Of a stretch of 64,000 bases of DNA, positions 8,583 to 55,664 are shown one piece after another; position 1 is the first letter of the stretch; every line of letters starts with the position of its first letter. The stretch is taken from assembly GCA_000995965.1 (NCBI GenBank), contig LBYD01000001.1, positions 76,923-140,922 on the forward strand, given 5' to 3'. Below the pieces are notes generated by a model. That model did no database searches. It worked only from the letters and a program-made list of their open reading frames with translations, and was not told the origin of the DNA. This DNA is from Candidatus Moranbacteria bacterium GW2011_GWC2_40_12 (GTDB taxonomy: Bacteria; Patescibacteriota; Minisyncoccia; Moranbacterales; UBA11712). Position numbers and translations under genes: made by a program.

Positions 8583-8593
8583 TGTATTTCTTA

Positions 8594-8622: not shown

Positions 8623-8676
8623 ATAGTTTCAAAATTAACAAAAAAACAATAAATGAAAAGGGAGGCAGGCCGGTCA

Positions 8677-12610: not shown

Positions 12611-13606
12611 ATGGAAAATACCGCCATTGTCATTGTCAACTGGAACGGAAAGAAGTATCTCAAGGACTGCTTCGATTCGCTCCAAAAACAAACCTATGAA
12701 AATTTCAGGGTTATTTTTGTGGACAACGGGTCAACAGACGATTCAGTCAATTTTGTAAAAAATAACTACTTGGAAACTAAGTTTCCAAGTGTAAAAATAG
12801 TTCGATTAGAAAGGAATACCGGTTTCTGTTTTGGATATAACGTGGGCATCAAGTCGGCGCTTGAAGATCCTAAGATAAAATACGTAATTGTTCTCAATAA
12901 TGACACCAGACTGGATGAAAAATACGTCGAAGAATTGGCAAGATGCGCGAAAAAATATCCGGGTACAGGTTCCGTCCAGCCGAAAGTTTTGAATTTTTTT
13001 GAAAGGGAAAAAATTGATTGCGCCGGAATTTATATCACTCGCGACGGGACGGCCCATAACAGGGGATACGGAAGAGATGCAAGAAGATATAGTGAAGAAA
13101 AAGAAATTTTCGGCGCGAACGGGACAGCCTCGCTTTTTACCCGGGAGGCGCTTGAGAAAACAGCCCTTCTGGAGCATAATTATTTCGACAATGACCATTT
13201 TGTTTTCTATGAAGACGTGGATCTGGCCTGGCGGATGAAAAACGCGGGATTTAAGTCGTATTTTTGCCCGCAGGCGGTCGTATATCACGTCCACAGCGGA
13301 ACTGCCGGAAAAGGTTCGCTGATGAAAGCATATTATCTCCACCGAAACTATTTCTTCACTGTCATAAAAAATTATCCTTTTGGAAAAATGGCAAAAACGT
13401 TTTTTTGGCGATTTTTCAGCTATCTGAAGCTGGTCGCGAATATATTCAATAAAAAGAAACGGGAGACGGAATTCGTAAAAGGGCGGAGCAAAGCTGAAGT
13501 CGCCCTTGTGATTCTCAAGGCATGGGGGAGCGTCTTATGCAATTTATCGAGAATGATGAGAAAAAGAATGTTTATCAGAAAAAAGATTCATGAAAATCAA
13601 ATTTGA
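12611..13606 (+). CDS. GT2 glycosyltransferase (rhamnosyltransferase-like)
   Basis: IVIVNWNGKKYLKDCFDSLQKQTY, VIFVDNGSTDDS, LNNDT and YEDVDLAWR. Confidence 0.8.
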   Translation: MENTAIVIVNWNGKKYLKDCFDSLQKQTYENFRVIFVDNGSTDDSVNFVKNNYLETKFPSVKIVRLERNTGFCFGYNVGIKSALEDPKIKYVIVLNNDTRLDEKYVEELARCAKKYPGTGSVQPKVLNFFEREKIDCAGIYITRDGTAHNRGYGRDARRYSEEKEIFGANGTASLFTREALEKTALLEHNYFDNDHFVFYEDVDLAWRMKNAGFKSYFCPQAVVYHVHSGTAGKGSLMKAYYLHRNYFFTVIKNYPFGKMAKTFFWRFFSYLKLVANIFNKKKRETEFVKGRSKAEVALVILKAWGSVLCNLSRMMRKRMFIRKKIHENQI

Positions 13607-36527: not shown

Positions 36528-37679
36528 TCAACCCAGTAAAGATGAGTATATGTGAAGCGTTTTTTGCGCGGTTTTTTGCCAGGTGAATTTTTGGGCGGTA
36601 TTTCGTCCTTTTTCGATCAAATTGTTCCTTAGGTTTGCATTATCCAATATTTTTTGAATATTTTCAGCGAATGCGGCGCTGTTTTTCGGGTCGCAAAAAA
36701 GTGCTGAATCTTCACCTATTTCACGAAAAACTGGAATGTCCGAGCAGACAACCGGCGTGCCGGCGGCCATGGATTCGATAGCTGGAATTCCAAAGCCTTC
36801 ATAAAGTGAAGGAAAAACGAGGCACTCGGCCGTTTGAATCAAGGCGGGCTTGTCTTCTTCTTCAATCCAGCCCGGGAAAATCACTTTATCTTTAAGGTTA
36901 TTTTTGTCAATTGACTCATCAATTTTTTTGTCGAAATTATGGGCTTCCCTGTTTCCGGCCAGGATCAATTTTATGTCAAGATTTTTTATCGATTCAATAA
37001 GAACCGGAATATTTTTTCTTGGCTGCAAAGTGCCGATATGGAGGATGAATTTAGCGCCAGGTATCTGATATTTGGCCTTTACGCCATCAATTTCTCCAAG
37101 AGAAAATTTTTGGCTGAATTTTTCAAAATCAACGCCGTTATGCGTAAATTCCATTTTTTCCAGAGGGATTTTATAAAAATCAATGATATTTTTTTTCTCA
37201 CTTTCGGAAACAGTGATTATTTTGTCCGCCCGTTGAATGCTTCGCGGGAGGAGCGTTTTTAGGAAAAACAAATCGGATTTTTTGATATGCTGCGGGAAAA
37301 AATTGAATGAAATATCGTGAATCGTAAGGACTAATTTTATATTTTTCGGCAGCCAAAAGGGCGCGATATATTGGGTATGAAAAATATCCACCGGATTTTT
37401 TTTGAGATAATTCGGCAGATCCCAAAAATTCCACCAAAAGCGATTTAGCGAGTTTATGAAGATAACTCTGAAACTATCATCCAATTTTAGTTTATCAATC
37501 TCTATTTTCAGAGTACTGTCTTTTTCCGGATCGCGATCAGTGAAAAGAACATACTTGTTATCCGCAGCGGTCGAACCGCTACGATTGATTTTCGCGAGAT
37601 TTTTCACCAAATTTAAAAAATATACTTCATCACCAGTGCGTTTTTTGCCTATTGTCCGTATATCTATGCCAATTTTCAT
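36528..37679 (-). CDS. GT4 glycosyltransferase
   Basis: PSLYEGFGIPAIESMAAGTPVV (EX7E motif) and group-1 GT architecture. Confidence 0.82.
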   Translation of the reverse strand: MKIGIDIRTIGKKRTGDEVYFLNLVKNLAKINRSGSTAADNKYVLFTDRDPEKDSTLKIEIDKLKLDDSFRVIFINSLNRFWWNFWDLPNYLKKNPVDIFHTQYIAPFWLPKNIKLVLTIHDISFNFFPQHIKKSDLFFLKTLLPRSIQRADKIITVSESEKKNIIDFYKIPLEKMEFTHNGVDFEKFSQKFSLGEIDGVKAKYQIPGAKFILHIGTLQPRKNIPVLIESIKNLDIKLILAGNREAHNFDKKIDESIDKNNLKDKVIFPGWIEEEDKPALIQTAECLVFPSLYEGFGIPAIESMAAGTPVVCSDIPVFREIGEDSALFCDPKNSAAFAENIQKILDNANLRNNLIEKGRNTAQKFTWQKTAQKTLHIYSSLLG

Positions 37680-37701
37680 AAACTCGCGAATTTAGAACGA
37701 A

Positions 37702-39360
37702 TTAAAACGAATCAGAACGGATGTTTCTTGTGCTTACAATTATTGCCAGTCCAAACCAAAATATTCCCATAAAAAGTCCCGCGTTAAATAAATTCGGGAC
37801 GATCAAAGAAGTGATTCCTAAAACCGTGAAGACACTCATCGCTTTTTCGAAATCATCTTTCACTACTGGACAGCCGAAAAACCGGTTCATCGGACAAATC
37901 GGCGAGATGCGCCGGAAAGCATAAATAAAAAGGTAGCCAAAAACAGCTATAAACGCCATCAATCCCAAAATCCCGCTTCCCGCCCAAATCTGAAGAAAAA
38001 CGTTGCTTTCGTTGAGGCCGGCTCCCCGCTGGTCAACGCCTATTTTTTCGGTAATCGTTCCGTATCCTATGCCCAAGAGCGGCGATTTTTTGAGGATATT
38101 CCATGACTCTCGATAAATTTCGCTTCGAGTTCTCACGTTCGGGTCTTTTCGGAAAGTTTCGGCGACAATTTTTCCCCGCAATTTATAGAAATTTATTTCT
38201 TCCAGATTGATATGCCGGCAATTATATTTTGGAAGTTCGCCAATATCTTCAATTGAATCGGGAATATCCGCGCTGTTTTCGCAAGCAATCGTGATTTTCT
38301 GCTCGCTGGTGGCGGTTGAGCGCGCCCGGTCAAAAATATCGAATTTTGAAAGTTTGCCGAAATGAACCGCCAATAAGGATGCAATTATAATCGAAAATAT
38401 TATCGCCGATTCCCTCAAGAATCCTTTCCAGCCGCCGACATATTTGCTGACGGCGCCTGTCTTGCGCGACGGCGCTAGCGCGAGAAAATAAAAAGTTATG
38501 ACAACGGCCGCTCCGATCCAAGCTGAACGCGAAAGGGTCAATATGAGCAGCGTTATATCGAAAAAAATAAAAACATCCAAAAACAAAACAATGTATTGTC
38601 TCGAAATAAGCAGCATCCTCTTTGACCGGAGGAAATAAAATATCAACGCGAGAAAAACCGCCAGCGCGAAAACAAGATATATTCCCAGCCAGTCTGGTTC
38701 GGCAAATGTGGAATTTGGCCGTCCGAACATTATCTCGAAAGATTTCGCGCCCAATTTGTCGGAAAAAACCTGATAAAATCCGAATAATATTGTCGTCAGG
38801 AATGAGATCATCAAAAAAGCGGATGTTTTCGCGAGGTCTTCGCAGTTTCTCAAGAAATTGCGGACCAAAAAATATAAAGCGATAAAAGAAATCAAAATAA
38901 GATTATTTTTGAGGGAAATAGATTTGTTCGAAGCGCCTATCAGCGCCAAAAAACTGAGAGGAACCAATGTCAAAATCAGCCAATCGATCCAGTTTGGCTT
39001 CAAGAATTTGAAACCTATCCGTTTGGAGATAAAAAGGATTATCATTGCCAAAATCAATATTCCTGCCAAAAATTGATATGGCCGCAGTTGAAACGGAATA
39101 TAGTTTCCGGTCAGGATCACATTTTCAAGAGAAATGCTGCCCACGAAAAGAAAAAATATCCAGCGGGGGCGGTAGAGCGCGATTAGGAGAGCCACCAGAG
39201 ACAAAAAAACAAAGTCCCCTTTTCCGAGCGGCAATTTGTTTCCTGCCGAAAGGGCTGCGGCAACCAGGCTCAAGACAAAACCAAAAACCCAAACCCAGGC
39301 GAGTTCTCTTTTGAATATATTTTTTAAAATTTTTACTGTATTTTTCGTGTTAACCATCAT
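37702..39360 (-). CDS. O-antigen ligase/polymerase-like (Wzy_C family) polytopic membrane protein
   Basis: More than 10 helices. LTLSRSAWIGAAVV is the characteristic Wzy_C/WaaL loop motif. A large extracytoplasmic insert is present. Confidence 0.7.
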   Translation of the reverse strand: MMVNTKNTVKILKNIFKRELAWVWVFGFVLSLVAAALSAGNKLPLGKGDFVFLSLVALLIALYRPRWIFFLFVGSISLENVILTGNYIPFQLRPYQFLAGILILAMIILFISKRIGFKFLKPNWIDWLILTLVPLSFLALIGASNKSISLKNNLILISFIALYFLVRNFLRNCEDLAKTSAFLMISFLTTILFGFYQVFSDKLGAKSFEIMFGRPNSTFAEPDWLGIYLVFALAVFLALIFYFLRSKRMLLISRQYIVLFLDVFIFFDITLLILTLSRSAWIGAAVVITFYFLALAPSRKTGAVSKYVGGWKGFLRESAIIFSIIIASLLAVHFGKLSKFDIFDRARSTATSEQKITIACENSADIPDSIEDIGELPKYNCRHINLEEINFYKLRGKIVAETFRKDPNVRTRSEIYRESWNILKKSPLLGIGYGTITEKIGVDQRGAGLNESNVFLQIWAGSGILGLMAFIAVFGYLFIYAFRRISPICPMNRFFGCPVVKDDFEKAMSVFTVLGITSLIVPNLFNAGLFMGIFWFGLAIIVSTRNIRSDSF

Positions 39361-39673
39361 TTTTTGAAATTCTCATTTCTAATCCTTCCATATTCTTCAG
39401 AAATGATTTCTCCAAGTCAATACCATAATTATTAGCTAGAACAAGAATACTCCACAAACAATCAGCTAACTCGTGTTCTAATTTTTCGTTTATATTTTTA
39501 ATATCTCGAATCCCCTCTTTAGCCATAACTAATTTCATGAGATCGCCAATGTCGCCCACGAATCCTTGGGCTATCTGGGCATTTGTCCATTTCTTGCCGT
39601 ATTTTTTCATTTCTAATTCTCCGTATTTTTCTCGAACTTCGACAGCTTTTTGAATAAGATCATTAAGTTCCAT
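39350..39673 (-). CDS. MazG-like nucleotide pyrophosphohydrolase (single domain)
   Basis: …GDIGDLMKLVMAKEG… and EHELADCLWSILVLANNYGIDLEKSF match the MazG/YpjD pattern. Confidence 0.75.
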   Translation of the reverse strand: MELNDLIQKAVEVREKYGELEMKKYGKKWTNAQIAQGFVGDIGDLMKLVMAKEGIRDIKNINEKLEHELADCLWSILVLANNYGIDLEKSFLKNMEGLEMRISKNDG

Positions 39674-39684
39674 AAATTTCTAAA

Positions 39685-40845
39685 TCATTTCAAAATTATA
39701 TTCATAAATTTTTTCCAGCTGAATTTTTTGGACCGCTTTTTTCCTTTTTCCGAAAGATGGTGCTTGAGTTTGGGATTTTGGAGGATTTTTCCCATCACCC
39801 GGGCCATCTCTTCTTCGTCATACGGATTGAAATAGAGAACGGCGTCGCCTCCCACTTCCGGAAGTGATGACGTTTTGGAAACGGCTGCCGGTGTGCCCGA
39901 AGCCATCGCTTCAAGCGCCATAAGGCCGAAGCCTTCATAAAGGGACGGCAGGACGAACAATTCGCTTTGGCGATACAGCGCCGGCAGATCTTTTTGCTCG
40001 CAAAAACCGGTCAATACCGCGTCATTTTCAAGCCCCAGATCCTCGATTTCTTTTTTGACGTTTGTGAAAAGGGGGCTGTATTTTGATTTATCTTCTCCTC
40101 CCAGCACCATTTTCACGTCGTTTATTTCATATCTTTCTGTCAGCCTTTTATATGCTTTCAAAAGTCCGGAAACATTTTTCCGAAAATCAAATCCGCCGAC
40201 ATAGAAAATATAGCGGCCGAAAATTCCGTATTTTTCAAGAATTTTGTTGTCTTCGTCATGGTTTCCAGTCTGGAAAAATTCTTCATTGACGCTTGGGTGT
40301 GCTACTTTTATCTTTTTCTCCGGAACTTCAAGATATTTGTGAATATCTTTCTTCGACCACTCAGAAACAGTAAGTACTTCATCGGCGTGCCGAATAGATT
40401 GGTTTGAAAGATAAAAATATAATTTCTTGCGCCAGTTGTTGAGATATTCCGGGAAGACTTTCAAAATGAGATCGTGAACCAGCATTTTGTGGCGGATATT
40501 TTTCGAGAAATTCGTTGGGCATTGATAAAGCGAAATGAAGACATCACATCCGTCTTTTTTGGCCTTCCGAGGCAGAAGAAATTTTTCCCACCATATTTTT
40601 CGGAACAGATCGTCACGCCGCCAAAGCATCGGCAGAAAAACCCGCTTATGGAAATTTTTTGGAAGCTTCAAATCAATATCCTTTTCGAGATACAAAAAAT
40701 ACTCGTTTTTTTTCGAGCGGGATTTCAAAAGTTCTTGGATAAATCCATCGGTCACTTGACCAATACCGGTATCAATTTTTCTCAAAAATGAGGCGTTTAT
40801 CCCAATTTTCATACCATAATTATCATACGACAAATATGGCATCAA
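39685..40845 (-). CDS. GT4 glycosyltransferase
   Basis: PSLYEGFGLMALEAMASGTPAA and group-1 GT architecture. Confidence 0.82.
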   Translation of the reverse strand: MMPYLSYDNYGMKIGINASFLRKIDTGIGQVTDGFIQELLKSRSKKNEYFLYLEKDIDLKLPKNFHKRVFLPMLWRRDDLFRKIWWEKFLLPRKAKKDGCDVFISLYQCPTNFSKNIRHKMLVHDLILKVFPEYLNNWRKKLYFYLSNQSIRHADEVLTVSEWSKKDIHKYLEVPEKKIKVAHPSVNEEFFQTGNHDEDNKILEKYGIFGRYIFYVGGFDFRKNVSGLLKAYKRLTERYEINDVKMVLGGEDKSKYSPLFTNVKKEIEDLGLENDAVLTGFCEQKDLPALYRQSELFVLPSLYEGFGLMALEAMASGTPAAVSKTSSLPEVGGDAVLYFNPYDEEEMARVMGKILQNPKLKHHLSEKGKKRSKKFSWKKFMNIILK

Positions 40846-40905
40846 GGCAAACTAAAAGCTCGATTTTTTCGGCCGGCTGTGGTATAGTGATTTTGTGGTT
40901 TTTTT

Positions 40906-42018
40906 ATGAAAATACTCTTTATTTCCCGGGCCTATCCCCCAATTCTAGGCGGGATAGAAAACCAGAATTTTGGAATCGGCAAAGCGCTTTCCGAAATTGC
41001 GACAACCAGGACAATTGCCAATAAATCAGGCAAAAAGAACCTGCCGTTTTTTTTGCCTTGGGTGGCTTTGAAAGTCCTTTTCATTCTTCCGGGGCACGAG
41101 GTTGTTCTTCTCGGAGACGGAGTTCTTTCGCCGCTGGCAGTTTTTTGGAAAATGTTTCACCGAAAAAAAAAATATATTTCGATTGTGCACGGGCTTGATA
41201 TCACTTTTGCGCACAAAAAATCGATTCTCGGAAGAATATACAGGGCGGTCAATATCCCCGCGCTCAAGAAACTCGATAGGCTAATCATGGTCGGCCAGGA
41301 AACGATTGCTGAAGCGCAGAAATTGGGAATCCCAGAGGAAAAATGCAAGTTTATTCCGAATGGATTCGATGCGGATGAAATAATCGCAAAAAAAACCAAA
41401 GAAGATTTGGAGAGATTGCTTGGGATGAATCTCAGCGGGAAAAAAGTAATATTTCGCGGCGGAAGATTCACGAAACATAAAGGCGTGGAATGGTTTATCC
41501 GGAATGTAATGCCGAAATTGCCGGAAAATTGTCTTTTTGTCGCAGCGGGCGGCGGAATCGCGAAAAAAACCGCGGGCGATGAAAATTATTTTCCAAAATG
41601 CGAAAAAGCCGTTCAGGATCTGGGACTGGAAAATCGGGTGAAACTGATGCTTAATCTGCCAAGGCCGCAAATAAAAATTCTTTTTAACGCGTGCGATTTG
41701 TATATTTCCCCGAATATAAAAGTCCCGGGATCTCTCGAAGGCTTTGGCATTACCGCCATTGAAGCGGCTGCTTGCGGAAGAGTCGTATTGGCGGCTGATC
41801 TTGAGGGACTCAAAGACGCCATAAAAAATGAGCAAAACGGATTTCTTCTCGAATCCGGGAAGGCCGATATGTGGGCGGATAAAATAAAAGATATTCTAGC
41901 AGATGATGATTTTCGCAATGATTTTGGGAAAAAAGCCAGCCAATTCACGATTGAAAATTATAGCTGGAACAAAATTGCTAAAAAATATCTGGAGGTTATT
42001 GAAAATACTTTTTCCTAA
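40906..42018 (+). CDS. GT4 glycosyltransferase
   Basis: MKILFISRAYPPILGGIENQ and GSLEGFGITAIEAAACGRVVL. Confidence 0.8.
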   Translation: MKILFISRAYPPILGGIENQNFGIGKALSEIATTRTIANKSGKKNLPFFLPWVALKVLFILPGHEVVLLGDGVLSPLAVFWKMFHRKKKYISIVHGLDITFAHKKSILGRIYRAVNIPALKKLDRLIMVGQETIAEAQKLGIPEEKCKFIPNGFDADEIIAKKTKEDLERLLGMNLSGKKVIFRGGRFTKHKGVEWFIRNVMPKLPENCLFVAAGGGIAKKTAGDENYFPKCEKAVQDLGLENRVKLMLNLPRPQIKILFNACDLYISPNIKVPGSLEGFGITAIEAAACGRVVLAADLEGLKDAIKNEQNGFLLESGKADMWADKIKDILADDDFRNDFGKKASQFTIENYSWNKIAKKYLEVIENTFS

Positions 42019-42044
42019 TCTTCGAGATTAGGAATCGCCAACGT

Positions 42045-43928
42045 ATGATTTTAGACTTGACAAAACTTGTTCTGACTTTGCCGTTTGTCTTCGTTCTGCC
42101 CGGCTTTTTCCTTTTGCTGGCGATTTTTGGCTGGAAGTCAGCCTCTGGCGGATCAAAAATTTCCTTCTTCGAAAAAGCCGCTTTGGCAGTCCCAATGAGC
42201 GTGATCGCGGTTGATTTTCTGGTTCTGGCGCTCAACAGGCTGCGTATTTTTTTGAACGGGCCGGTGCTGATTGGGGCTATCATTGCTTTTTCGCTTCTTT
42301 GTTATATTGTTTTCCAATGGCGATTCGGGAAAAAAGCAAAAGCAAAGGATAAAAAGGAAGAAGATGCGGCCCAGAATTTTTTTGATTTTTCTTATTGGCA
42401 AGCCATATTCATCCTTCTTTCTCTTTTTTTGGCAATATTCATGCGGACGACTTATCTCTCCGACACGATTGTTCCGTCGTCGACTGACCTTGGCCATCAT
42501 ATGTTTTGGGTCCAGAAAATTGTTGACGCGGGAAGCCTTCCCGACTACGGGATGCCCGACTTTATTATTGGTGAGCATATTATTTTCGCGGTGATAAATC
42601 TCTTGAGCGGCGCGAGCCCGATGGGAGCCATGCCCGCCATTGTTCTTCTGCTTTTGAACATCATTGGAATTTTCACTTTGTCAATATTGGCCGGAAGAGT
42701 TTTTCGAAACCCGAAAACGGCGGCGATGATTTTCTTTGTCACGGGCGTTCTCTACGCAATCAATGCTCCCCAAGGGAAATACGTGAGCGGCGGCGTGGTT
42801 GGGAACATTATCGGCAATATGCTGATTCCGGTTGCTTTGTATTTTTTATATCGGGCGCTTTCCGAGAAAGATTCCGTCTTTGCCGGACTATTTCTTTTTT
42901 CGGCGGCCGGGCTTCTTTTCACCCATCATTTGTCCGCTTTTATCCTGATTTATTCGGTTGCCGCGATTGTTTTGGCATATCTCGCGCTCAATTTCACCAA
43001 ATCTTTCAAAATTGTTGGCGGCTGGTTCAGGATATTCCTGAAACCTTTTCCCATAGCGGTTTTTCTGCTGGTTATTTTTTATTTCCTGTTTGTTTTTACC
43101 CCTTCTTATTTCAACCCGGAGGCAGTTGCTCAAGCAACCGGCGAGCCGACAAAAATCACGAGATTCGGTCTCGGACTCGACCAATTGGAAACCAACGCTG
43201 GAAGCGCAAGGCTGATTCTCGGGACATTTGGCTTCGCACTTTTTTTTCTGGCGGCCAGGAGAAAAGAATACAAATTTAGCTTCGCTCTGTCTTGGGCCAT
43301 TGTGTTGCTTCTTATGAGCTGGAAGCCGGGGTGGCTTTATGTAAATATTCCGAGCGACCGGATCGGAAACTATCTTTTCCTTCCTTTCTCCCTGCTTGCG
43401 GCTTTTGGCATAGTCGAGCTGATGAAGCTCTTCAGAAAATCATCGACAAATTTTTTCTCAACCGCCTTGCTCTTTATTTTGCTGTTTTTCGCAATTACTG
43501 ACGGGCTCTCAGACAGCGCTGAGGCTTTCAAGTCGCGGCCTCAATTTCAGGAAGCGATGCAGACTTTTCATTCGGCCGACTATCTCGCCGAAAAATTAGA
43601 TTCTTCGCAGGATATATTGCTCAAGGATCATGTGAACATATACGGCGATTCGTGGTATAAATTATTCTTTATGAAAGATTATAAATACCCCTTGAGCCGC
43701 GGGAATTTGTCACGCTATGCTGATCCAACGAAGCCTAGGGAAACCTGTACGCGGGATATGATTTCCGAACCAGACTCCCTGGAAGGCCAGGCTTGTTTTT
43801 CCGAAACCGGAGTGAACTATGTCGCCCTCAACGCCCAGCTTGAAGGAAACAGTTTTGAAAAATATCCGGATTTTTCGAAAATATACAGTTCAAATTATTT
43901 ATCTATATTCAAAAGAAATATTCAATGA
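42045..43928 (+). CDS. Large polytopic membrane protein (GT-C-like candidate)
   Basis: 627 aa with about 13 hydrophobic helices. It has a loop STDLGHHMFWVQKIVDAGSLPDYG and a soluble C-terminal ~130 aa. Confidence 0.5.
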   Translation: MILDLTKLVLTLPFVFVLPGFFLLLAIFGWKSASGGSKISFFEKAALAVPMSVIAVDFLVLALNRLRIFLNGPVLIGAIIAFSLLCYIVFQWRFGKKAKAKDKKEEDAAQNFFDFSYWQAIFILLSLFLAIFMRTTYLSDTIVPSSTDLGHHMFWVQKIVDAGSLPDYGMPDFIIGEHIIFAVINLLSGASPMGAMPAIVLLLLNIIGIFTLSILAGRVFRNPKTAAMIFFVTGVLYAINAPQGKYVSGGVVGNIIGNMLIPVALYFLYRALSEKDSVFAGLFLFSAAGLLFTHHLSAFILIYSVAAIVLAYLALNFTKSFKIVGGWFRIFLKPFPIAVFLLVIFYFLFVFTPSYFNPEAVAQATGEPTKITRFGLGLDQLETNAGSARLILGTFGFALFFLAARRKEYKFSFALSWAIVLLLMSWKPGWLYVNIPSDRIGNYLFLPFSLLAAFGIVELMKLFRKSSTNFFSTALLFILLFFAITDGLSDSAEAFKSRPQFQEAMQTFHSADYLAEKLDSSQDILLKDHVNIYGDSWYKLFFMKDYKYPLSRGNLSRYADPTKPRETCTRDMISEPDSLEGQACFSETGVNYVALNAQLEGNSFEKYPDFSKIYSSNYLSIFKRNIQ

Positions 43929-43944
43929 GCGAAGCGAATACCAA

Positions 43945-43978
43945 ATTTTTGATTTTTGATTTTTGATTTTTGATTTTT
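43945..43978 (+). repeat. Heptanucleotide tandem repeat (GATTTTT) x4 plus a partial copy
   Basis: aTTTTT GATTTTT GATTTTT GATTTTT GATTTTT gc was read directly, between stop 43928 and ATG 43991. Confidence 0.92.
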
Positions 43979-43990
43979 GCATTTATTATA

Positions 43991-44353
43991 ATGTCCAGCA
44001 AAATAATCATCATCGCCACAATTATATTTCTCATCGTCAGTTTCTCGGTGCTTTTTGTCATCGAAACGAAAAATCACGACTATGATTACAAAAAATCGTG
44101 GAGCGTGGTTTATTTCGAAAATCCGCGGGATAATTCGCTTGATTTCACGATTGAAAACCACGAAGGCGAAAAATCAGAATATAACTATGAAATATCGATT
44201 GACGAAAAAAAAATATCCGACAACAAAATTGAAATTGAAAAGGGCGCCGTGCAGAAAATCTATCCGATTATAGATTTAGAAAAATCCGCTAGAGTCACAA
44301 TCGAAGTAACCGCGGATGATTTGAAGTATAGGATATATAAGAATATTCAATGA
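43991..44353 (+). CDS. Small single-pass membrane protein with an extracytoplasmic beta-rich domain
   Basis: MSSKIIIIATIIFLIVSFSVLFVI anchor. ATGA overlap with the downstream GT4 gene. ATG 43991 is preferred over TTG 43970, which lies inside the repeat. Confidence 0.55.
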   Translation: MSSKIIIIATIIFLIVSFSVLFVIETKNHDYDYKKSWSVVYFENPRDNSLDFTIENHEGEKSEYNYEISIDEKKISDNKIEIEKGAVQKIYPIIDLEKSARVTIEVTADDLKYRIYKNIQ

Positions 44354-45486
44354 AACGAATTCTACTCCTCACCCGCCCGATTTGCCCGCCGTGGGACGAG
44401 GGCTCCAAAGATTTTGCCTACACTCTGGCGAAGCACGCCCGTGATTTTGAAGTGCACCTTTTGACTTTTGGGAAAGTAGCGGATCTTCCAGAAAGTGTGG
44501 TCCAACATTCGATTTATACGTCACCGAAGTGGGATTTTGGGCAAAAAGTGCGGGCGTACCTGTTTCTTGTCAGGGAATTTCTGATCAAGGGCGGAAAGGA
44601 CTATGATATTCTCCATTCTTTTTTCACGCCGACAAAACTGAATGTTTTCGCGCTGAAACTATGCCTTCGGAATAAAAAATTGAAAACCATCCAGACTCTG
44701 GCCACGCTTCGAGACGATATTTATAGCGACGAGCAAATAAAGAAAATTATCCACGCCGATCTTATCATCGCCTACTCCGACTACGCCAAAGAAAAGCTGG
44801 AAAAAATGGGATTCGGAAATGTGAAGCGAATCTATCCGGGAATTGACATCAATTTATTTTCCCCCGCTCCGAAAAATCCGGAACTGATGAAAAAATATGA
44901 GACAAGTGAAAGCGATTTTGTGATAAACTACACGGGAGAATACTTGCGGCTCGGGGATATGGACGACATCGCTCCCGTTTTTTCAGAGTTGTCGAAAGAA
45001 AACAAAAATTTCAAACTGCATCTGGCTGTCCGGGTGAAGAATCAGGCTGACGCGGAAAAAAAGGAAGAGGTGAAAAAAGAATTCAAAAAAGAAGGCGTGC
45101 TGGACAGGGTGGCTTTTCTGGATGACGGCGGATACACGATGGAGCAAATATATAATCTCTGCGACATTTCAATTTTTCCCGCCCGGACGATGGCCGGAAA
45201 ATTTGACATTCCTCTGGTTGTTCCGGAGGCGATGGCATGCGGGAAACCGGTGATCACCAGCAATATCCCAAGGCTCCGATATTTTTTGAATGATGAAAAC
45301 AGCCTTTTGATTGAACCGGGCGACCGAAGAGCGCTCAAAGACAATATCTTGTACCTTCATTCAAGTCCTGAAGCGCGCCGCGAGCTGGGCGACAAGGGAA
45401 TGGAATTTGCAAGGGAAAATTTTGACATAAAAAAAATAGTGAAAGAATACGAAGAAGTTTATGAAAATGTAATTAGTAATTCGTAA
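44350..45486 (+). CDS. GT4-type glycosyltransferase
   Basis: C-terminal half …FDIPLVVPEAMACGKPVITSN…. The last five codons (VISNS*) are supplied by the dispersed motif. Confidence 0.75.
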   Translation: MKRILLLTRPICPPWDEGSKDFAYTLAKHARDFEVHLLTFGKVADLPESVVQHSIYTSPKWDFGQKVRAYLFLVREFLIKGGKDYDILHSFFTPTKLNVFALKLCLRNKKLKTIQTLATLRDDIYSDEQIKKIIHADLIIAYSDYAKEKLEKMGFGNVKRIYPGIDINLFSPAPKNPELMKKYETSESDFVINYTGEYLRLGDMDDIAPVFSELSKENKNFKLHLAVRVKNQADAEKKEEVKKEFKKEGVLDRVAFLDDGGYTMEQIYNLCDISIFPARTMAGKFDIPLVVPEAMACGKPVITSNIPRLRYFLNDENSLLIEPGDRRALKDNILYLHSSPEARRELGDKGMEFARENFDIKKIVKEYEEVYENVISNS

Positions 45487-45490
45487 TTTG
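45469..45490 (+). repeat. Dispersed motif copy GTAATTAGTAATTCGTAATTTG
   Basis: The 17-mer AATTAGTAATTCGTAAT at 45471-45487 is identical to 53357-53373. Confidence 0.9.
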
Positions 45491-45544
45491 AAATGCGGAT
45501 ATTTGCGTTGTCTTGGTCACAGACTTATAATTGTTAATTGCTTT

Positions 45545-46996
45545 ATGCAGGGTATCGAATCGCTATCAAAACACAAGAAAAAATTCCAGACGGACAAAAT
45601 GAAGGTCCCGGCGATTTTGCATTGTTCAGACGACCTTTTGCCAAATGAAAAAACTTTGCGGCAGCTTGAGAATACAGCTTCTCAAGAATATGTTTTTCAC
45701 CATGTCGCGGCCCTTTCCGACGTGCACGATAAAAAAGGACGCAAAAATCCGACCGGGACAGTCGTAGCCAGCGAAAAATACCTTTTACCGCAAATCAACG
45801 ATACGGCGCCCAATTGCGGTATGAGGCTTCTGAAAACCAATCTTACAGACTCGGATCTTTCGCCCGAAAATATTGATAAGTTGTTTAATGGCTTAATAAA
45901 AACAATCCCGACAAAGGCGTATGTCGGTACTCCAGTTCCCTATTCCCTTGTGGTCGACATTTGCCGAAACGGGCTTAGGTCAGTCACAAAATATTTCAAA
46001 ACACGAACAAAAAATGAAATTGAAAATACGTTCAAAAACGGAAATTTTTTCGACCAGGAAATAAGCAAAAAAGAAATAACCGACGCGATTCCGGAGCTAT
46101 TTTTGTGGATTGGGAAATTTCGTCTTGGAATTTTGGGAGCGGCGGGAAACCATTTTTTGGATCTCATGAAAATAACAGACATTATCGATAGTGACGTGGC
46201 GAGAAGATTCGGGCTTCAAAATGGACAATATATTTTCATGATGCACACGGGTTCGGGTCTTCTCGGGCAATATGCCTCATATCTCTATACTCCCAAAAAA
46301 AAGGAACATCTGAGCCAGCGAATTATTCTTGAACTTGGAAAATTATTTTGGCGTTCGGAGAAGAAAAAAATATATCGCGAGATTGCGAAAAAAATCTCTG
46401 CTTACAAAAATAAGGATGAATTTTTCGCCTATGATGCGGAAACTCCCGAAGGAAAAATGTTTTTGACGGCGCATCAAGCGGCGGGAAATCAGGGATTTGC
46501 AAATCGCAGCATTCTTACCCACAATCTTGACCAAACCATTGAAAAAGTTTTGGGGAAAAATCCAGAATTCGAACTCCTTTATGATTCCCCTCATATTTTT
46601 ATAAACCGGGAAAATCATTTTGGAAAAGATGTCAGGGTCCATCGCAACGGTGCTGTTCGGGCAATCGCCGGTGAGCCCGTTTTCATCCCTTCCTCAATGA
46701 GTACGCCGATGTATCTTGGCGTCGGCACAAACGAGAACGAATCAACTTTTTTTTCCGCGGGTCACGGCACCGGACGGCGCAAGAATCCCGAAAACGACAA
46801 GGCTGGCACAAAAGAAGAATTGTTTGCGAAAATGCAGAAGAGAAAAGTGAAATTGTATAACGCAAAATCAAAAGGTGTGGTTTTCCAGGACGCAAGTTAT
46901 TATAAGGATGTTGAGGAAGTGATCGCCGGCATGGAAGAAAACAAAATCGTGAAAAAAGTGGCGAAGATGGAGCCGGTGGCGGTGTTGATGTATTGA
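45545..46996 (+). CDS. rtcB: RtcB-family RNA ligase (divergent)
   Basis: Metal/GMP-site motifs occur in order: SDVHDKKG, PNCGMRLL, AAGNHFLDL, MHTGSGLLG and SAGHGTGRR. The N-terminus KFQTDKMKVPAIL resembles archaeal RtcB. Start uncertain (45488 TTG or 45545 ATG). Confidence 0.78.
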   Translation: MQGIESLSKHKKKFQTDKMKVPAILHCSDDLLPNEKTLRQLENTASQEYVFHHVAALSDVHDKKGRKNPTGTVVASEKYLLPQINDTAPNCGMRLLKTNLTDSDLSPENIDKLFNGLIKTIPTKAYVGTPVPYSLVVDICRNGLRSVTKYFKTRTKNEIENTFKNGNFFDQEISKKEITDAIPELFLWIGKFRLGILGAAGNHFLDLMKITDIIDSDVARRFGLQNGQYIFMMHTGSGLLGQYASYLYTPKKKEHLSQRIILELGKLFWRSEKKKIYREIAKKISAYKNKDEFFAYDAETPEGKMFLTAHQAAGNQGFANRSILTHNLDQTIEKVLGKNPEFELLYDSPHIFINRENHFGKDVRVHRNGAVRAIAGEPVFIPSSMSTPMYLGVGTNENESTFFSAGHGTGRRKNPENDKAGTKEELFAKMQKRKVKLYNAKSKGVVFQDASYYKDVEEVIAGMEENKIVKKVAKMEPVAVLMY

Positions 46997-50473: not shown

Positions 50474-51271
50474 ATGATACGCTTTGCCGCGATTACTCCT
50501 CATCCGCCAATTATTATTCCGACTATCGGTCGGAGTAATTTGAATTTGAGCAGAAAAACCGTGAATGCGATGAAGGCGGCTGGAGAAAAATTCCGTTCCG
50601 TAAAAGCGAATACGATTGTTCTGATTTCACCCCATGGTCCGGTGCAATACGATAAATTCATTATCAACTATTCTCCCACTCTTCGCGGAGATTTGTCCTC
50701 TTTCGGCGATCATCGCCGGTTTATTTTCGAAAATGACCGCGAACTCATTGACGAGATTATGGAAAGTAGCCGGATGGCCCGATTGCCGATTGGCCTAGCG
50801 AGGGAACTCGAACTTGATCATGGAGCCCTGGTGCCTCTTTATTATTTGATGAATGAAAAGGATTTGGGCTATAATCCGCGGCTGATCCATATGTCATATT
50901 CAATGCTGCCTTTGGATTATCATTTCCGATTTGGAGAAATTTTGGGGAGTGTCTTGCAAGGCAGCCCAAAACTGATCTCTTTCATTGCGAGTGGAGATTT
51001 GTCGCACCGGGTTTCGCTTGATGCTCCGGCCGGATACTCCCCCCAAGGAAGAGTGTTTGACAGGATGCTCATTGATTTAATCCAGCAAAAAAACACCAAA
51101 GGCGTTCTGAATATCGACCCATATCTCATTGAAGAATCCGGAGAATGCGGTTTGCGTTCGATTATCATGCTCTTGGGTGCTCTCAAGAACACGAGATGGG
51201 AAGTGAAGAATTTGAGTTATGAAGCTCCTTTCGGAGTGGGATACATGGTGGCGAGCCTTAATATCAAATAA
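50474..51271 (+). CDS. LigB-family (class III extradiol dioxygenase subunit B-like) protein
   Basis: AAITPHPPIIIP, LISPHGP, ELDHGALVPL and SGDLSHR. Confidence 0.6.
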   Translation: MIRFAAITPHPPIIIPTIGRSNLNLSRKTVNAMKAAGEKFRSVKANTIVLISPHGPVQYDKFIINYSPTLRGDLSSFGDHRRFIFENDRELIDEIMESSRMARLPIGLARELELDHGALVPLYYLMNEKDLGYNPRLIHMSYSMLPLDYHFRFGEILGSVLQGSPKLISFIASGDLSHRVSLDAPAGYSPQGRVFDRMLIDLIQQKNTKGVLNIDPYLIEESGECGLRSIIMLLGALKNTRWEVKNLSYEAPFGVGYMVASLNIK

Positions 51272-51355: not shown

Positions 51356-53290
51356 ATGAAAGGCAATTATATAATAAAAATCGCTCCGCTCATTCGCTTG
51401 CCAATCGCGAGAACGCAGGTTTTCTCGTATTTATTCCGGAAGCCGATAAAAAGCGGGAGCCTGGTGGAAATACCTTTCTATAATCGCGTCATTTCAGGGA
51501 TCGCATTGGACAGCCGAGAGGATTTTCCCCGAAAAGGAAATTTTGAACTGAAGAATGTGAAAAACATCGTGGAAGAAGAAATGCTTACCGAAAAACAAAT
51601 CAAATTTGCAAAAAAAATGGCGGATTTCTATCTTTCTCCGCTTGGGATAATTTTGAAGATGATGGTTCCGAAAATCTCGGAAATGAAGAAAAAAAAACGA
51701 ATGAATGCGGCGAAGATTGAGATAATAAAAAAAAGCGGTCGGACGAAGGAAATAACAGGCGCAAAAAGCAAAGAAGTCGTCTTGGTCGGTCCCGAAGATG
51801 AAAGAGATAAGGATATATTTTCAGCCATGAAGCAGGCAATTGCAGAAAATAAGCAATTATTGTATCTTATTTCTGAGATATTTCCTGCAGCTGCTTTTTT
51901 TGAAAATCTCAAAAAACATTTTCAAACAGAAGAAATTGCCCTGATTCACGGATCGGTCTCAAAAGGAAATTTCTTTGACGTTTGGGAAAAAATCAAAAAT
52001 GGAGAAATCAAGATAGTCGTCGCTACGAAAACGGGCCTATTTCTCCCCTTTTGCGGGCTTGGGACGATCGCGGTCGAGGAATCCGGTGAAATTTCACACA
52101 AGCAATGGGACATGAACCCGAGATACAACGCGGCTCGAGCCGCCAAGTTGCTGGCCGATATCCATGGTGCGAAAATAATATATTCAAATTCCGTTCCAAC
52201 TGTTGAAATGTGGAAAAGAAAAAAAGAGAAGTTTGTTCAAGCATCGGATTTGGGTGAAGATAATTCAAACCGGAGCGAAATCAGAATATCGAACATCTTC
52301 AGAGAAAAAAAGAGCGCTGACTTTCCGATTGCAAAGGAGCTTTACAAGTCGCTCTCAAGCATAATAGACAGAAAAGAAAAGGCGCTGCTGGTCGTGAACC
52401 GAAAAGGATTTTCAAGTTATTCGATTTGCCGAAGCTGCAAAACAGTTTTGCGCTGTCCAGAATGCAACCGGGCGCTGGTCTATTTTGAAGAAAAAGAAAA
52501 ATACAGATGCCTTCATTGCAGCCATAAAATGGATCTTTTTTGCGCCTGTCCTTCTTGCGGGGCATGCCAATTTTCACATCAGGGAATAGGTATCCAGCTG
52601 GTCGAGAAAAAAATCAGAAGGCTTTTCCCGTCAGCGCGAATACTGCGTCTTGAAGCTGACGCTTCGAAATCGAAAAAGAAAAGCGAAAAAATGTTGAAAG
52701 ATTTGTCGGATGAAAATTTCGACATTCTCATCGGCACGCAAGTCGCCTTGAAAATTGGCAGACTTTGCAAATTCAACCTAGTTGCTTTTCCCAGCTTTGA
52801 CGATTTGGGAAGCATTCCCGATTTCAACTCGAGAGAAATGGTCTTTGCGATTCTTGGCCAAGCTGAGGGCCTTCTGAAAAAAAGCGGCATTTTGATCGTT
52901 CAAACGGTTTATCCCGACAGTTTTTTGCTGGGCTCGTTCAAAAACCGAAATTGGGCTGAGTTTTTCGAAAAAGAGCTGAAGGAAAGAAAAAAAACCATGA
53001 ATCCCCCGTTTTCAAGGATAATCAAAATTATTTTTAGAGATAAAAACAAAATAAAAGCGAAAAATGAGGCTAACAAGGTATATGGCTTGCTCGAAGCGCT
53101 TGCGGATAGTAATATTGATATAGGCGAACCATACGATCCCTTTGCGGCCAAAAGAAGAGGATACTATCATAAAAATATACTGATCAAAGCCGTGCCAGGA
53201 ACCGAAATGCGCAAATTACCTTTTTTTTCCGTGATTAGCGGCCTGCGAAAGGGCTGGGTGGTTGATGTTGATCCGATAAGCACGCTTTAG
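51356..53290 (+). CDS. priA: Primosomal protein N' (PriA) homolog with degenerate helicase motifs
   Basis: Colinear with PriA. The 4x Cys-pair zinc region is intact: CRSC…CPEC…CLHC…CPSC. Walker A GxGKT is GPEDERDK, DEEH is VEESGE, and motif VI GRAGR is GLLKK. Synteny is priA-def-fmt. Confidence 0.8.
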   Translation: MKGNYIIKIAPLIRLPIARTQVFSYLFRKPIKSGSLVEIPFYNRVISGIALDSREDFPRKGNFELKNVKNIVEEEMLTEKQIKFAKKMADFYLSPLGIILKMMVPKISEMKKKKRMNAAKIEIIKKSGRTKEITGAKSKEVVLVGPEDERDKDIFSAMKQAIAENKQLLYLISEIFPAAAFFENLKKHFQTEEIALIHGSVSKGNFFDVWEKIKNGEIKIVVATKTGLFLPFCGLGTIAVEESGEISHKQWDMNPRYNAARAAKLLADIHGAKIIYSNSVPTVEMWKRKKEKFVQASDLGEDNSNRSEIRISNIFREKKSADFPIAKELYKSLSSIIDRKEKALLVVNRKGFSSYSICRSCKTVLRCPECNRALVYFEEKEKYRCLHCSHKMDLFCACPSCGACQFSHQGIGIQLVEKKIRRLFPSARILRLEADASKSKKKSEKMLKDLSDENFDILIGTQVALKIGRLCKFNLVAFPSFDDLGSIPDFNSREMVFAILGQAEGLLKKSGILIVQTVYPDSFLLGSFKNRNWAEFFEKELKERKKTMNPPFSRIIKIIFRDKNKIKAKNEANKVYGLLEALADSNIDIGEPYDPFAAKRRGYYHKNILIKAVPGTEMRKLPFFSVISGLRKGWVVDVDPISTL

Positions 53291-53356
53291 CTGTACGAAT
53301 CTCTCTCGAATCCGAAAAAATGAAGTTCGAAATTCGTATAAGCATGCAACGTCGCG

Positions 53357-53373
53357 AATTAGTAATTCGTAAT
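53357..53373 (+). repeat. Dispersed motif copy AATTAGTAATTCGTAAT, 3 nt upstream of the def ATG
   Basis: Identical 17-mer to 45471-45487. Confidence 0.9.
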
Positions 53374-53376
53374 GTT

Positions 53377-53817
53377 ATGCTGAAGATTATAAAATATCCT
53401 GATGATTTTCTCCGCAAAAAGTCGGAAGAAGTGAAAGATTTCAAAGACCCGCAGATCGCGAAGCTGGTTTCAGATATGTTGAAAACAATGGAAGCGGAAA
53501 AAGGAATTGGACTTGCCGCGCCGCAGGTCAATTCCAGCCTTCGAATTTGCGTCGTCCGGGTTGACAACACAGCGCATATATTAATCAATCCAAAAATAAA
53601 ATCTTTTTCCCGAAAAAAAGAAGTTTTCGAAGAGGGGTGCCTGAGCTTTCCGGGAAAGTTTTTTCCGGTTGAACGGCCGGTAAAGGTGAAAATAAAAGCA
53701 AAAGATCTTGATGGCAGGAAAATAAAGATCAAAGCTGAAGGGCTTTTGGCGCGCGTGCTTCAGCATGAAATAGATCATCTTGACGGAGTTTTGATAATTG
53801 ACAGAATTGTAAAATGA
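53377..53817 (+). CDS. def: Peptide deformylase
   Basis: GIGLAAPQV, EGCLSFPG and QHEIDHLDG. Start chosen at MLKIIKYPD. Confidence 0.92.
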   Translation: MLKIIKYPDDFLRKKSEEVKDFKDPQIAKLVSDMLKTMEAEKGIGLAAPQVNSSLRICVVRVDNTAHILINPKIKSFSRKKEVFEEGCLSFPGKFFPVERPVKVKIKAKDLDGRKIKIKAEGLLARVLQHEIDHLDGVLIIDRIVK

Positions 53818-54812
53818 TGATTGGGATTTCTCCCAAGATCCGATCTTGGGAAAGTTTGAGGAAAGAGAATATCAAGATTATTTTTTTTGGAACTCCGCAT
53901 TTTGCGGAAAAAATTCTCAAGGAAATAATCACGGCTGGCTATAGTGTCGTGGCCGTCTTCACCCAGCCGGATAAAAAATTTGGGAGGTCGCGGATGATGA
54001 AAAAATCAGCTGTCAAAGAACTGGCCGAAAAAAAAACCATTCCCGTTTTTGAGTCGCAGAATCTCAGGCAAGAAAAGGCAGTCAAGGAAATTATGAAACT
54101 GCGCCCGGATCTTATCGTCGTCGCCGCGTATGGAAAGATTCTTCCCAAATCAATTCTTGAAATTCCGAAATACGGGGCAATAAATATTCATGCTTCGCTT
54201 CTTCCAAAATTCCGCGGCGCCTCCCCCGTTCAAGAGGCCATACTTTCAGGGGAAAATAAAACGGGGATCACTTTGATGCTGATGAACGAAAAATTAGATG
54301 CCGGAGAGATCATAAACCAGGAATCGATTTCAATCAAAAAAAAAGACACCACTCACAGTTTGAGCGAAAAATTGGCTGACGTCGGAGGAAGAGCTTTGCT
54401 CGAAACCATTCCCCTTTGGATTAGCGGATCAATCAAGCCAACTTTGCAAAATGAAAAAGAAGCCACTTTTTGCCGAACAGTAAAAAAAGAAGATGGAAAA
54501 ATCGATTGGAATGATCCGGCGGAAACAATTTTTAGGAAATGGAGAGCATATAAAGTTTGGCCGGGAATATTTGCTTATTTTACCTTAAGAATGGGGAAAA
54601 AAAGGCTGAAGCTGGCGGAGATAGAGATGGAAGAAAAGGAGGATATTGGAGAATTGCCCGGAAAAGTGATAAAATATAAAGACAAGATAGCCGTTCAAGC
54701 AAAAAAAGGATTAATAGTGCTGGAGAGAGTCCAACTCGAGGGGAAAAAAGAAATGACAGTCGAGGAGTTTTTGAAAGGACACAAAGATTTTTTAGGCAAT
54801 GTCTTGGTTTAA
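53814..54812 (+). CDS. fmt: Methionyl-tRNA formyltransferase
   Basis: IIFFGTPHFA, HASLLPKFRGASPVQEAIL, and an ATGA overlap with def. Confidence 0.9.
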   Translation: MMIGISPKIRSWESLRKENIKIIFFGTPHFAEKILKEIITAGYSVVAVFTQPDKKFGRSRMMKKSAVKELAEKKTIPVFESQNLRQEKAVKEIMKLRPDLIVVAAYGKILPKSILEIPKYGAINIHASLLPKFRGASPVQEAILSGENKTGITLMLMNEKLDAGEIINQESISIKKKDTTHSLSEKLADVGGRALLETIPLWISGSIKPTLQNEKEATFCRTVKKEDGKIDWNDPAETIFRKWRAYKVWPGIFAYFTLRMGKKRLKLAEIEMEEKEDIGELPGKVIKYKDKIAVQAKKGLIVLERVQLEGKKEMTVEEFLKGHKDFLGNVLV

Positions 54813-54824
54813 TAAAACAAAAAA

Positions 54825-55664
54825 ATGCAAAAAGAAAATCCGGAATTTTATCGGAAAAATCAAAACAAAATTTTTATTCTGGGGTTTGTCCTGATTTTAG
54901 CCGTGATCAGCTGGTCTTTAGTCCGGCCGATTATCTTCAAAAATACCCAAAAAGAAGAAAAAGATTCAAAAATAAATGAAGAGATTCTCAAAGCTCCATT
55001 GATTACTTTGAAAGAATTTTCCGAAAAAATTAGGGACAACGAAAAACTGTTCATCGTCGATCTCCGAAACGCCGGTGATTTTTCCGCGGGGCATATAGCC
55101 GGTGCAATAAATTTTCTGCCCGGAACAGGCCTGGCAGATCAAATCAAAAAGGCCGGTGCTGAAAATACGACCAACATTGTTATCGTGAATAAAGGCGAAA
55201 ATGTTTTTGAGGCTGCCGAAGCGGCTAATGATATCATTGCCGCGGGTTTCGTGAATGCGAAATATCTTCGCGGGGGAATAACGGACTGGCGCAATGAAGG
55301 TTATACTTTGGTTTCAGGAGGAAATTCTCCAGGCGATCAAAGCAAAATAAAAAAAATAACAGTTGAAAAATTAGCCAGTGAACTTTCAGGCGGAGACGAA
55401 CTTGTCCAATTTATTGATATAAGAGACAAAGAAAAATTCAATCAAGGCCACATACCAAGGTCAATCAATCTTCCGCTTCCCCATCTTGAATCAAACCAGA
55501 AAGCCATTTCTCCCGTAAAAAAAGCAGTTGTTTATGGTGAAAACGAGGAAGAAGCGAGCAAGGCGGCAGTGATTCTATTCGACCTGAATTTTTTCAATGT
55601 CTATGTTCTTGACGGCGGATTGGCATCCTGGAAAAACAATAACGGAAAAATAGTGAGCGACTGA
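54825..55664 (+). CDS. Membrane-anchored protein with two rhodanese-homology domains (no catalytic Cys visible)
   Basis: A TM helix is followed by two domains: FIVDLRNAGDFSAGHIAGAINF and FIDIRDKEKFNQGHIPRSINLP. The active-site loop positions read VNKGENV and VYGENEE. Confidence 0.72.
   Translation: MQKENPEFYRKNQNKIFILGFVLILAVISWSLVRPIIFKNTQKEEKDSKINEEILKAPLITLKEFSEKIRDNEKLFIVDLRNAGDFSAGHIAGAINFLPGTGLADQIKKAGAENTTNIVIVNKGENVFEAAEAANDIIAAGFVNAKYLRGGITDWRNEGYTLVSGGNSPGDQSKIKKITVEKLASELSGGDELVQFIDIRDKEKFNQGHIPRSINLPLPHLESNQKAISPVKKAVVYGENEEEASKAAVILFDLNFFNVYVLDGGLASWKNNNGKIVSD

Follow-up and report, generated by a model that had tools for sequence, protein, structure and literature searches.

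A Moranbacteria PriA that has lost its ATP-site motifs and kept its DNA-contact and zinc residues: a probable natural pseudohelicase

Can a PriA protein still serve replication restart once its ATP-binding motifs are gone? The question is raised by a gene in a 64,000-nucleotide stretch of DNA from Candidatus Moranbacteria bacterium GW2011_GWC2_40_12 (GenBank assembly GCA_000995965.1, contig LBYD01000001.1, positions 76,923 to 140,922), which is called the window below and is numbered from its first letter. The open reading frame (ORF) at 51356-53290 (+) runs from an ATG to a stop codon and encodes a 644-amino-acid PriA orthologue, priA, in which the motifs of the ATP site are lost and the residues predicted to contact DNA and bind zinc are retained. 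The protein is probably a natural pseudohelicase: it would recognise forks and act as a scaffold on which the helicase is reloaded, with no use of ATP.

The identity of the gene was established from several sources. Its product is 100% identical to KKU00094.1, named "primosomal protein N'" in Candidatus Moranbacteria bacterium GW2011_GWC1_45_18, and exact copies of the sequence are found under at least 4 NCBI accessions (separate metagenome-assembled genome (MAG) records) and on 29 contigs. The protein scores 312.9 bits against the NCBIfam model TIGR00595 "replication restart helicase PriA" (cut-off 230) and 50.4 bits against Pfam PriA_3primeBD (PF17764, residues 15-105; cut-off 22.7, E 2e-13), lies above the cut-off for PriA_C (PF18074, residues 551-640; E 4e-9), and matches the solved E. 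coli and Klebsiella PriA structures at E ~1e-52. The domain order is that of a 3'-DNA-binding domain, lobe 1, lobe 2 with an inserted cysteine-rich region, and a C-terminal domain. No Pfam match to a DEAD or ResIII domain was obtained in the protein, Helicase_C fell under its cut-off, and the HMMER alignment to the solved structures begins at residue 154, right behind the Walker A position.

The window protein and E. coli K-12 PriA (from NC_000913) were aligned with 120 database relatives, in what is referred to as the 121-sequence alignment. The relatives fall into two groups: a motif-less clade (34 full-length proteins at 41-73% identity; 36 members overall) and 84 intact PriAs (at most 37% identity), which are also from Moranbacteria or Patescibacteria. 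The gene and the regions in which its ATP-site motifs have been lost are as follows.

51356-53290, + strand: priA without ATPase motifs, a putative pseudohelicase (ORF, Pfam, NCBIfam and PDB matches)
51671-51775, + strand: linker (residues 106-140), short and of low confidence (predicted local distance difference test score, pLDDT, 50-71), which replaces the E. coli winged-helix domain and in which the Q motif (LT.EQ) is erased
51788-51808, + strand: motif I (Walker A), dead in the alignment, GPEDE-RD (residues 145-151) against E. coli GVTGSGKT
52070-52090, + strand: motif II (Walker B), degenerate in the alignment, AVEESGE (residues 239-245) against E. coli IDEEHD
52184-52198, + strand: motif III, degenerate, SNSVP (residues 277-281) against the GSATP of intact relatives; variable in the clade
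52853-52882, + strand: motif VI, dead in the alignment, LGQAEGLLKK (residues 500-509), with QAEGLLKK against E. coli QVAGRAGR

At Walker A, K230 (E. coli numbering) has become Arg and one residue of the P-loop is deleted. The substitution is present in 34/34 clade members, where 84/84 intact relatives have Lys, and the deleted residue, G229, is missing from 34/34 clade members and is Gly in 83/84 intact relatives. The Walker B residue D320 is Asp in all 84 intact relatives, whereas the clade has Glu in 24/34 and Asp in only 4/34; E322 has become Ser in 16 clade members. Both motif VI arginines are gone in the window protein and a two-residue deletion lies behind the motif in the clade; 83/84 intact relatives keep R584 and 83/84 keep R587, while within the clade the first is Leu in 25/34 and the second is Lys, Glu or Asn, with Arg persisting in 3/34. 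Q203 of the Q motif, Gln in 84/84 intact relatives, is Ala in 25 of the 34. Sites at least 95% conserved in intact relatives yet unconstrained in the clade cluster in the nucleotide pocket (Q motif and motifs I, II, III and VI). Deep branches of the clade retain VEEEQD and GSxxP, and the subgroup of the window protein has VEESGD and SNSVP.

The preliminary description of this locus had listed substitutions at motifs I, II, III and VI, all four of which are correct in the alignment with E. coli PriA, and the degeneration is lineage-wide across the 34 full-length clade proteins. An alignment-independent regular-expression search found no Walker A string anywhere in 36/36 clade members; the few DExH- or GRxxR-like strings lie in three clade members, outside motif VI, and only the DEEQ of one of them (P0028) is at motif II. 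The possibility that the motifs are merely shifted is ruled out, because a search that ignores the alignment finds no Walker A, and no GRxxR at motif VI. The earlier statement that every recognisable helicase motif is lost holds for the Q motif and motifs I, II, III and VI and fails for Ia, Ib, IV and V, which can still be recognised, as can the aromatic-rich loop. Its prediction that the protein cannot hydrolyse ATP gains support from the loss of GK[ST], the Walker B Asp, the SAT of motif III, the motif VI arginines and the Q-motif Gln. Because the Lys-to-Arg change alone abolishes the ATPase and helicase activities of E. coli PriA and marks the ATPase-dead PriA of Deinococcus radiodurans, we infer that the window PriA does not hydrolyse ATP.

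The elements predicted to contact DNA or bind zinc are largely kept, and are located as follows.

51398-51670, + strand: 3'-DNA-binding domain (PF17764, residues 15-105), pocket residues Y25 and K66 (E. coli Y18 and K61) kept
51869-51889, + strand: motif Ia, kept (ISEIFPA; E174 invariant, the E254 equivalent being present in 34/34)
52022-52036, + strand: motif Ib, kept (ATKTG; T224-K225), with Thr or Ser followed by Lys in 34/34; the Arg-to-Lys change is conservative
52091-52126, + strand: aromatic-rich loop, kept (ISHKQWDMNPRY, residues 246-257), with K, Q, P and R invariant and W and Y in at least 32/34
52391-52414, + strand: motif IV, kept (VVNRKGFS), with R, G and S each in 34/34
52427-52558, + strand: cysteine-rich region with four CxxC pairs (C358, C361, C367, C370, C385, C388, C398 and C401)
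52727-52765, + strand: motif V, partly kept (LIGTQVALKIGRL), with GTQ and K present and the downstream G-W-D lost; G and T in 34/34, Q and K in 33/34
53006-53275, + strand: PriA C-terminal domain (PF18074, residues 551-640; E 4e-9)

The Tyr and Lys of the 3'-end pocket occur without exception in the 34 full-length clade members and in the 84 intact relatives, and the aromatic-rich loop corresponds to a fork-junction contact of PriA (PMC5778457). The Cys4-Cys4 region is intact, as first described: all four pairs are present (CRSC at 358-361, CPEC at 367-370, CLHC at 385-388 and CPSC at 398-401) and invariant in the 120 relatives, the eight cysteines being conserved in 36/36 clade members and 84/84 intact PriAs and essentially invariant over 148 representatives of protein clusters. 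Across these 148 cluster representatives, the retention of 12 ATP-site residues is 0.19 in this clade versus 0.99 in intact PriAs, that of 14 DNA-contact residues (a set taken from published contacts; PMC5778457) is 1.00 versus 0.93, and that of the eight cysteines is 1.00 in both. The winged-helix stretch is about 40 residues in the window PriA and 40-55 residues in Moranbacteria PriAs, versus 123 in E. coli; the absence of a winged-helix domain is a lineage trait common to intact Moranbacteria PriAs. Between the second and third CxxC pairs, a hairpin (residues 376-385) carries a Gly at its tip in at least 95% of intact PriAs and is Glu-rich in the clade (YFEEKEKYRC; Glu in 20/34). The corresponding hairpin of the E. 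coli cysteine-rich region has been proposed as an unwinding wedge (PMC10175261).

The AlphaFold2 model predicts an intact PriA fold (mean pLDDT 89.0; predicted template-modelling score (pTM) 0.89), with only linker residues 111-135 poorly defined. Superposition of the model on chain H of 8FAK, an E. coli PriA, gives a template-modelling score (TM) of 0.85, and the best non-PriA folds reach at most 0.43. Scores against apo or ADP forms of PriA are 0.68-0.71, below that for the fork-bound 8FAK (TMq 0.85). A locked fork-bound conformation was ruled out as a specific property of the window protein, since the model of an intact Moranbacteria control gives 0.82 against 0.66-0.71 (full-length chains).

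Synteny was compared in a scan of GTDB species-representative genomes, in which the best 80 of 230 matches comprise 11 loci of the clade and 69 others. The genes downstream of priA in the window are as follows.

53320-53817, + strand: def, peptide deformylase (PF01327, E 1e-53), in conserved position at 11/11 clade loci and at most intact ones
53814-54812, + strand: fmt, methionyl-tRNA formyltransferase (PF00551 and PF02911), whose first 4 nt overlap the end of def
54825-55664, + strand: rhodanese-domain gene, the conserved fourth gene of the array (tblastn synteny; PF00581 in L083, one of the compared loci)

All 11 clade loci have the priA-def-fmt-rhodanese arrangement, as do most Moranbacteria loci with an intact priA. 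The preliminary description of the protein as a PriA homologue in a conserved priA-def-fmt arrangement is thus borne out by the Pfam, TIGR00595 and PDB matches together with the downstream def and fmt. The window gene is an orthologue whose motor was lost in place, rather than a paralogue, because intact Moranbacteria PriAs hold the same priA-def-fmt slot. An origin as an extra paralogue is ruled out, as the gene sits in the ancestral slot held by the intact PriAs of sister lineages.

The full array of the clade loci reads flippase, folD, LigB/Memo-like, priA, def, fmt, rhodanese, groES. The LigB/Memo-like gene, at 50474-51271 (+) in the window, lies directly upstream of priA and is syntenic in all motif-less clade loci; it was not detected upstream of the intact priA genes in the same synteny comparison. 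Two features of the compared records concern their assembly. One MAG (JAJYKZ01, isolate DBS2-1.bin57) has an intact priA-def locus on each of two contigs (L016 and L018); the two loci differ, which most likely reflects a mixed-strain bin rather than a true duplication. Moranbacteria-type priA synteny is also present on contigs titled 'uncultured Bdellovibrionales bacterium' (L005, L011 and L012) and 'Candidatus Bathyarchaeia archaeon' (L009), and several intact loci likewise stand under other record titles; these are probably mislabelled or contaminated MAGs.

The motif-less group is monophyletic in a neighbour-joining tree (100/100 bootstrap replicates) and nests within the intact Moranbacteria PriAs. 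Support is 100/100 with all motif regions masked, which rules out the clade being an artefact of the motif columns. A full-length priA ORF with zero internal stops is present in 11/11 clade loci, and 55 alignment columns are invariant inside the clade. Ratios of nonsynonymous to synonymous substitution (dN/dS; Nei-Gojobori, least saturated pairs) are 0.12-0.18 overall, 0.04-0.14 in the cysteine-rich region and 0.08-0.18 in lobe 1, where the dead site lies. Because dN/dS is low in every domain, the dead lobe included, the gene is under purifying selection along its whole length. The low dN/dS and intact ORFs rule out a pseudogene; sequencing or assembly error is ruled out by the identical protein in independent assemblies and by the clade-wide losses.

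Motor loss does not appear to be confined to this clade. A profile of the clade was searched against 1.84 billion cluster representatives, a query that favours degenerate sequences. The clade itself was represented by five 50%-identity clusters at 850 bits or more, the next match being at 619 bits. Among the 148 nearest full-length representatives, 79 are without at least one of K230, D320, R584 and R587, and most of these are without several. All cysteines are kept in the 79, and retention is 0.33 at ATP sites versus 0.90 at DNA contacts. The degenerate PriAs form about 20 separate groups in a motif-masked neighbour-joining tree, and Fitch parsimony gives at least 16 state changes, a rough estimate from a simple tree method in which long-branch effects are likely. 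Arg occupies the P-loop Lys position in the whole clade and in 25/73 other degenerate representatives, which suggests that Lys-to-Arg often comes first and that the other motifs decay afterwards.

Degenerate loci number 13 among the best 80 of the 230 GTDB matches. Two of them (L049 and L075), of Moranbacteria type and with priA-def-fmt-rhodanese-groES synteny, fall outside the clade of the window protein; their PriAs are without Walker A, motif III and motif VI and keep VDEEQ. Among the cluster representatives, a further degenerate PriA (P0159) occupies the priA-def-fmt-rhodanese-groES slot, an Azambacteria-related group (P0175) has members named Candidatus Azambacteria and Patescibacteria group bacterium, and a second Moranbacteria lineage (P0138/P0402) forms a graded series from loss of Walker A only (ITNxSDKF, with DEAH, SAT and one arginine left) to total loss. 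These proteins resemble the window PriA in having lost ATP residues and kept the DNA contacts and eight cysteines, often with Lys-to-Arg and in several cases in the priA-def-fmt slot. They differ from it in falling into separate tree groups, in their replacement sequences and, for some, in being only partly degraded. That PriA motor loss is recurrent and convergent over Patescibacteria (the candidate phyla radiation, CPR), yielding many independent ATP-independent scaffolds, often by Lys-to-Arg and then stepwise decay of motifs II, III and VI, is a claim on which our judgement is evenly divided. A locus of the second Moranbacteria lineage (L082, GCA_942490825.1) has a motif-less priA (P0138) without def-fmt behind it; just upstream of this priA are a gene for a 993-residue UvrD-helicase/PD-(D/E)XK protein (AddA-like; L082:1-2528, -) and IS1/mutator-family transposase genes.

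How might such a protein work? If the window PriA is a pseudohelicase, the dismantled nucleotide pocket (Q motif, P-loop, Walker B Asp, motif III and both arginine fingers) would allow no hydrolysis, translocation or unwinding, and the two RecA-like lobes would remain as a rigid DNA-binding scaffold. DNA would be read by the conserved set of elements (3'-end pocket, motifs Ia, Ib, IV and V, aromatic-rich loop and two-zinc cysteine-rich region), with abandoned forks and D-loops recognised by their structure. The cysteine-rich region, lobe 2 and the C-terminal domain would clamp the single-stranded DNA (ssDNA) template of the lagging strand between them, and the protein would offer a platform for reloading the replicative helicase, just as E. 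coli PriA without ATPase activity (K230R/K230A) does in the PriA-PriB pathway. The window PriA could not prepare forks with duplex DNA on the lagging arm at the junction; such forks would have to be rare, or another enzyme would have to clear them.

There are precedents. E. coli PriA K230R (priA300) is without ATPase, helicase and translocase activity and still supports restart in vivo and in vitro via PriA-PriB (PMC5778457), and K230A PriA loads DnaB in vitro (PMC10175261). The cysteine-rich region swings, forms a pore round the lagging-strand ssDNA and exposes a partner-docking surface, and a duplex lagging arm needs unwinding first (PMC10175261; PMC13594977). The PriA of D. radiodurans, with Arg at the P-loop Lys, has no ATPase or helicase activity and binds ssDNA, forks and DnaB (PMC4504706). 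That fork and D-loop recognition and primosome recruitment are kept would fit the selective retention of residues, the purifying selection and the predicted fold, and DNA binding and helicase reloading by an ATPase-free window PriA are what we infer.

Several points weigh against this reading. Sequence, a predicted model and precedent are the sources for the loss of ATPase activity, for DNA binding and for the recruitment of partners. Pfam scans, including 30 further window proteins, found no DnaB, loader, PriB, DnaT, DnaD or other helicase in the 64-kb window. The evidence on a second intact PriA covers the best 80 of 230 genome matches, in which none of the 11 clade assemblies recurs among the intact loci. 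Where def and fmt have diverged to a matched degree (55-70% identity), the PriAs of the clade share 44-50% identity, versus 57-62% in intact lineages; this faster evolution of PriA relative to def and fmt means that some function has been relaxed, and a changed role is possible.

Such a changed role is the first alternative: the PriA fold and zinc region may have been repurposed for a DNA-structure-binding function other than replisome reloading, for example protecting forks, blocking restart or recombination where it is unwanted, or a new function that depends on a partner. The faster divergence favours it, as do seven sites conserved in both clades with different residues (e.g. H408 vs N, K419 vs E, M103 vs F and N607 vs Q) and the replacement of the conserved Gly by a Glu-rich tip in the cysteine-rich hairpin. 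However, the gene is still in the ancestral priA-def-fmt slot, exactly the fork-reading residues of PriA are kept, no domain has been gained, and a PriA without helicase activity is enough for restart in E. coli and occurs naturally in Deinococcus. Repurposing is considered unlikely.

Also quite unlikely is a division of labour in which a second intact PriA or another helicase or nuclease (Rep/PcrA/UvrD-, RecG- or AddAB-like) supplies the motor in trans and the window PriA is the fork-recognition subunit only. Rep is thought to cover for priA300 in E. coli (PMC5778457). The window contains a gene for a stand-alone PD-(D/E)XK nuclease without an attached helicase domain (25323-26444, +; PF12705, 373 residues), and the motif-less PriA of L082 adjoins its UvrD/PD-(D/E)XK gene. 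Against this stand the missing second PriA locus in the scanned matches and the lack of a helicase in the window, and paralogues are a priori unlikely in small genomes of this kind. The stand-alone nuclease may in its own right bear on fork processing where PriA has no motor.

A non-canonical ATPase, in which nucleotide is bound or hydrolysed via Arg150 and Glu241-Glu242 in place of Lys and Asp, is very improbable. R150 is invariant (34/34), acidic residues remain at motif II, and E. coli PriA has been suggested to have a second, poorly defined nucleotide site (PMC5778457); but K230R by itself kills the E. coli ATPase, the P-loop is one residue shorter and without the GxGK frame and Thr, and the arginine fingers, Q-motif Gln and SAT are gone, with replacement residues that vary freely within the clade. 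A decaying relic or assembly artefact, which the many missing catalytic residues and somewhat faster evolution might suggest, is effectively refuted by the low dN/dS, the intact ORFs in 11 divergent genomes and 34 full-length proteins down to 41% identity, the invariant columns, the confident predicted fold and the identical sequence in independent assemblies.

A PriA pseudohelicase is already known from Deinococcus-Thermus (Lopper et al. 2015, PMC4504706), and the window protein is probably a second, independent natural case, with more complete erosion of the ATP site than described there. The D. radiodurans PriA is likewise full-length, with Arg for the Walker A Lys and a degenerate Walker B, and introduced the pseudohelicase concept (PMC4504706). 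Unlike in that protein as described, where motifs I and II are highlighted, erosion in the window PriA also affects the Q motif and motifs III and VI, with insertions or deletions in I and VI. The nesting of the clade among intact Moranbacteria PriAs with the same synteny argues for an origin independent of Deinococcus-Thermus PriA. The E. coli K230R (priA300) and K230A proteins share the substituted P-loop Lys, and these ATPase-dead mutants still assemble a primosome (PMC5778457, PMC10175261); they are engineered single changes in a protein with a winged-helix domain and PriB and DnaT as partners, whereas the window PriA has a natural multi-motif loss and no winged-helix domain. With canonical PriA (TIGR00595; 4NL4, 6DGD, 8FAK) the window protein shares domain order and fold, and it differs in being without the ATP-binding motifs and the winged-helix domain. 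A 2018 review lists Deinococcus-Thermus as the sole exception to conserved PriA helicase activity (PMC5778457), and full-text searches found no literature that links PriA motor loss to Patescibacteria or to the candidate phyla radiation. That the loss apparently recurs across Patescibacteria is of more interest than the window protein itself.

Other genes in the window touch on different subjects. An 860-residue sigma-70 factor (33509-36091, -) has regions 1.2, 2, 3 and 4, which end at about residue 547, followed by a C-terminal extension of about 310 residues without a Pfam match. Three ORFs of 745, 619 and 552 residues (16044-18281, +; 6990-8849, -; 13590-15248, +) have no Pfam match at E <=1e-3 and sit amid glycosyltransferase and cell-envelope genes. 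An RtcB RNA ligase gene (45488-46996, +; PF01139) has as neighbours a long series of glycosyltransferase genes (36528-45486) and, at 37702-39360, a Wzy_C-type O-antigen-ligase-like gene.

The annotation of PriA is affected by these findings, as motif-less proteins now carry the name "replication restart helicase PriA". Motor loss in PriA also amounts to natural mutagenesis, in which the residues that outlast dozens of independent losses would mark the minimal PriA for fork recognition and helicase reloading: the 3'-end pocket, aromatic-rich loop, motifs Ia, Ib, IV and V, and zinc region. Why most bacteria keep the motor becomes testable, since genomes that encode it and genomes that do not can be compared in their helper helicases, the enzymes that process the lagging strand, and lifestyle. 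If the reading is true, the universally required function of PriA would be structure-specific recognition and loading rather than unwinding, and these ultra-small, probably host-dependent bacteria would restart replication by a minimal pathway.

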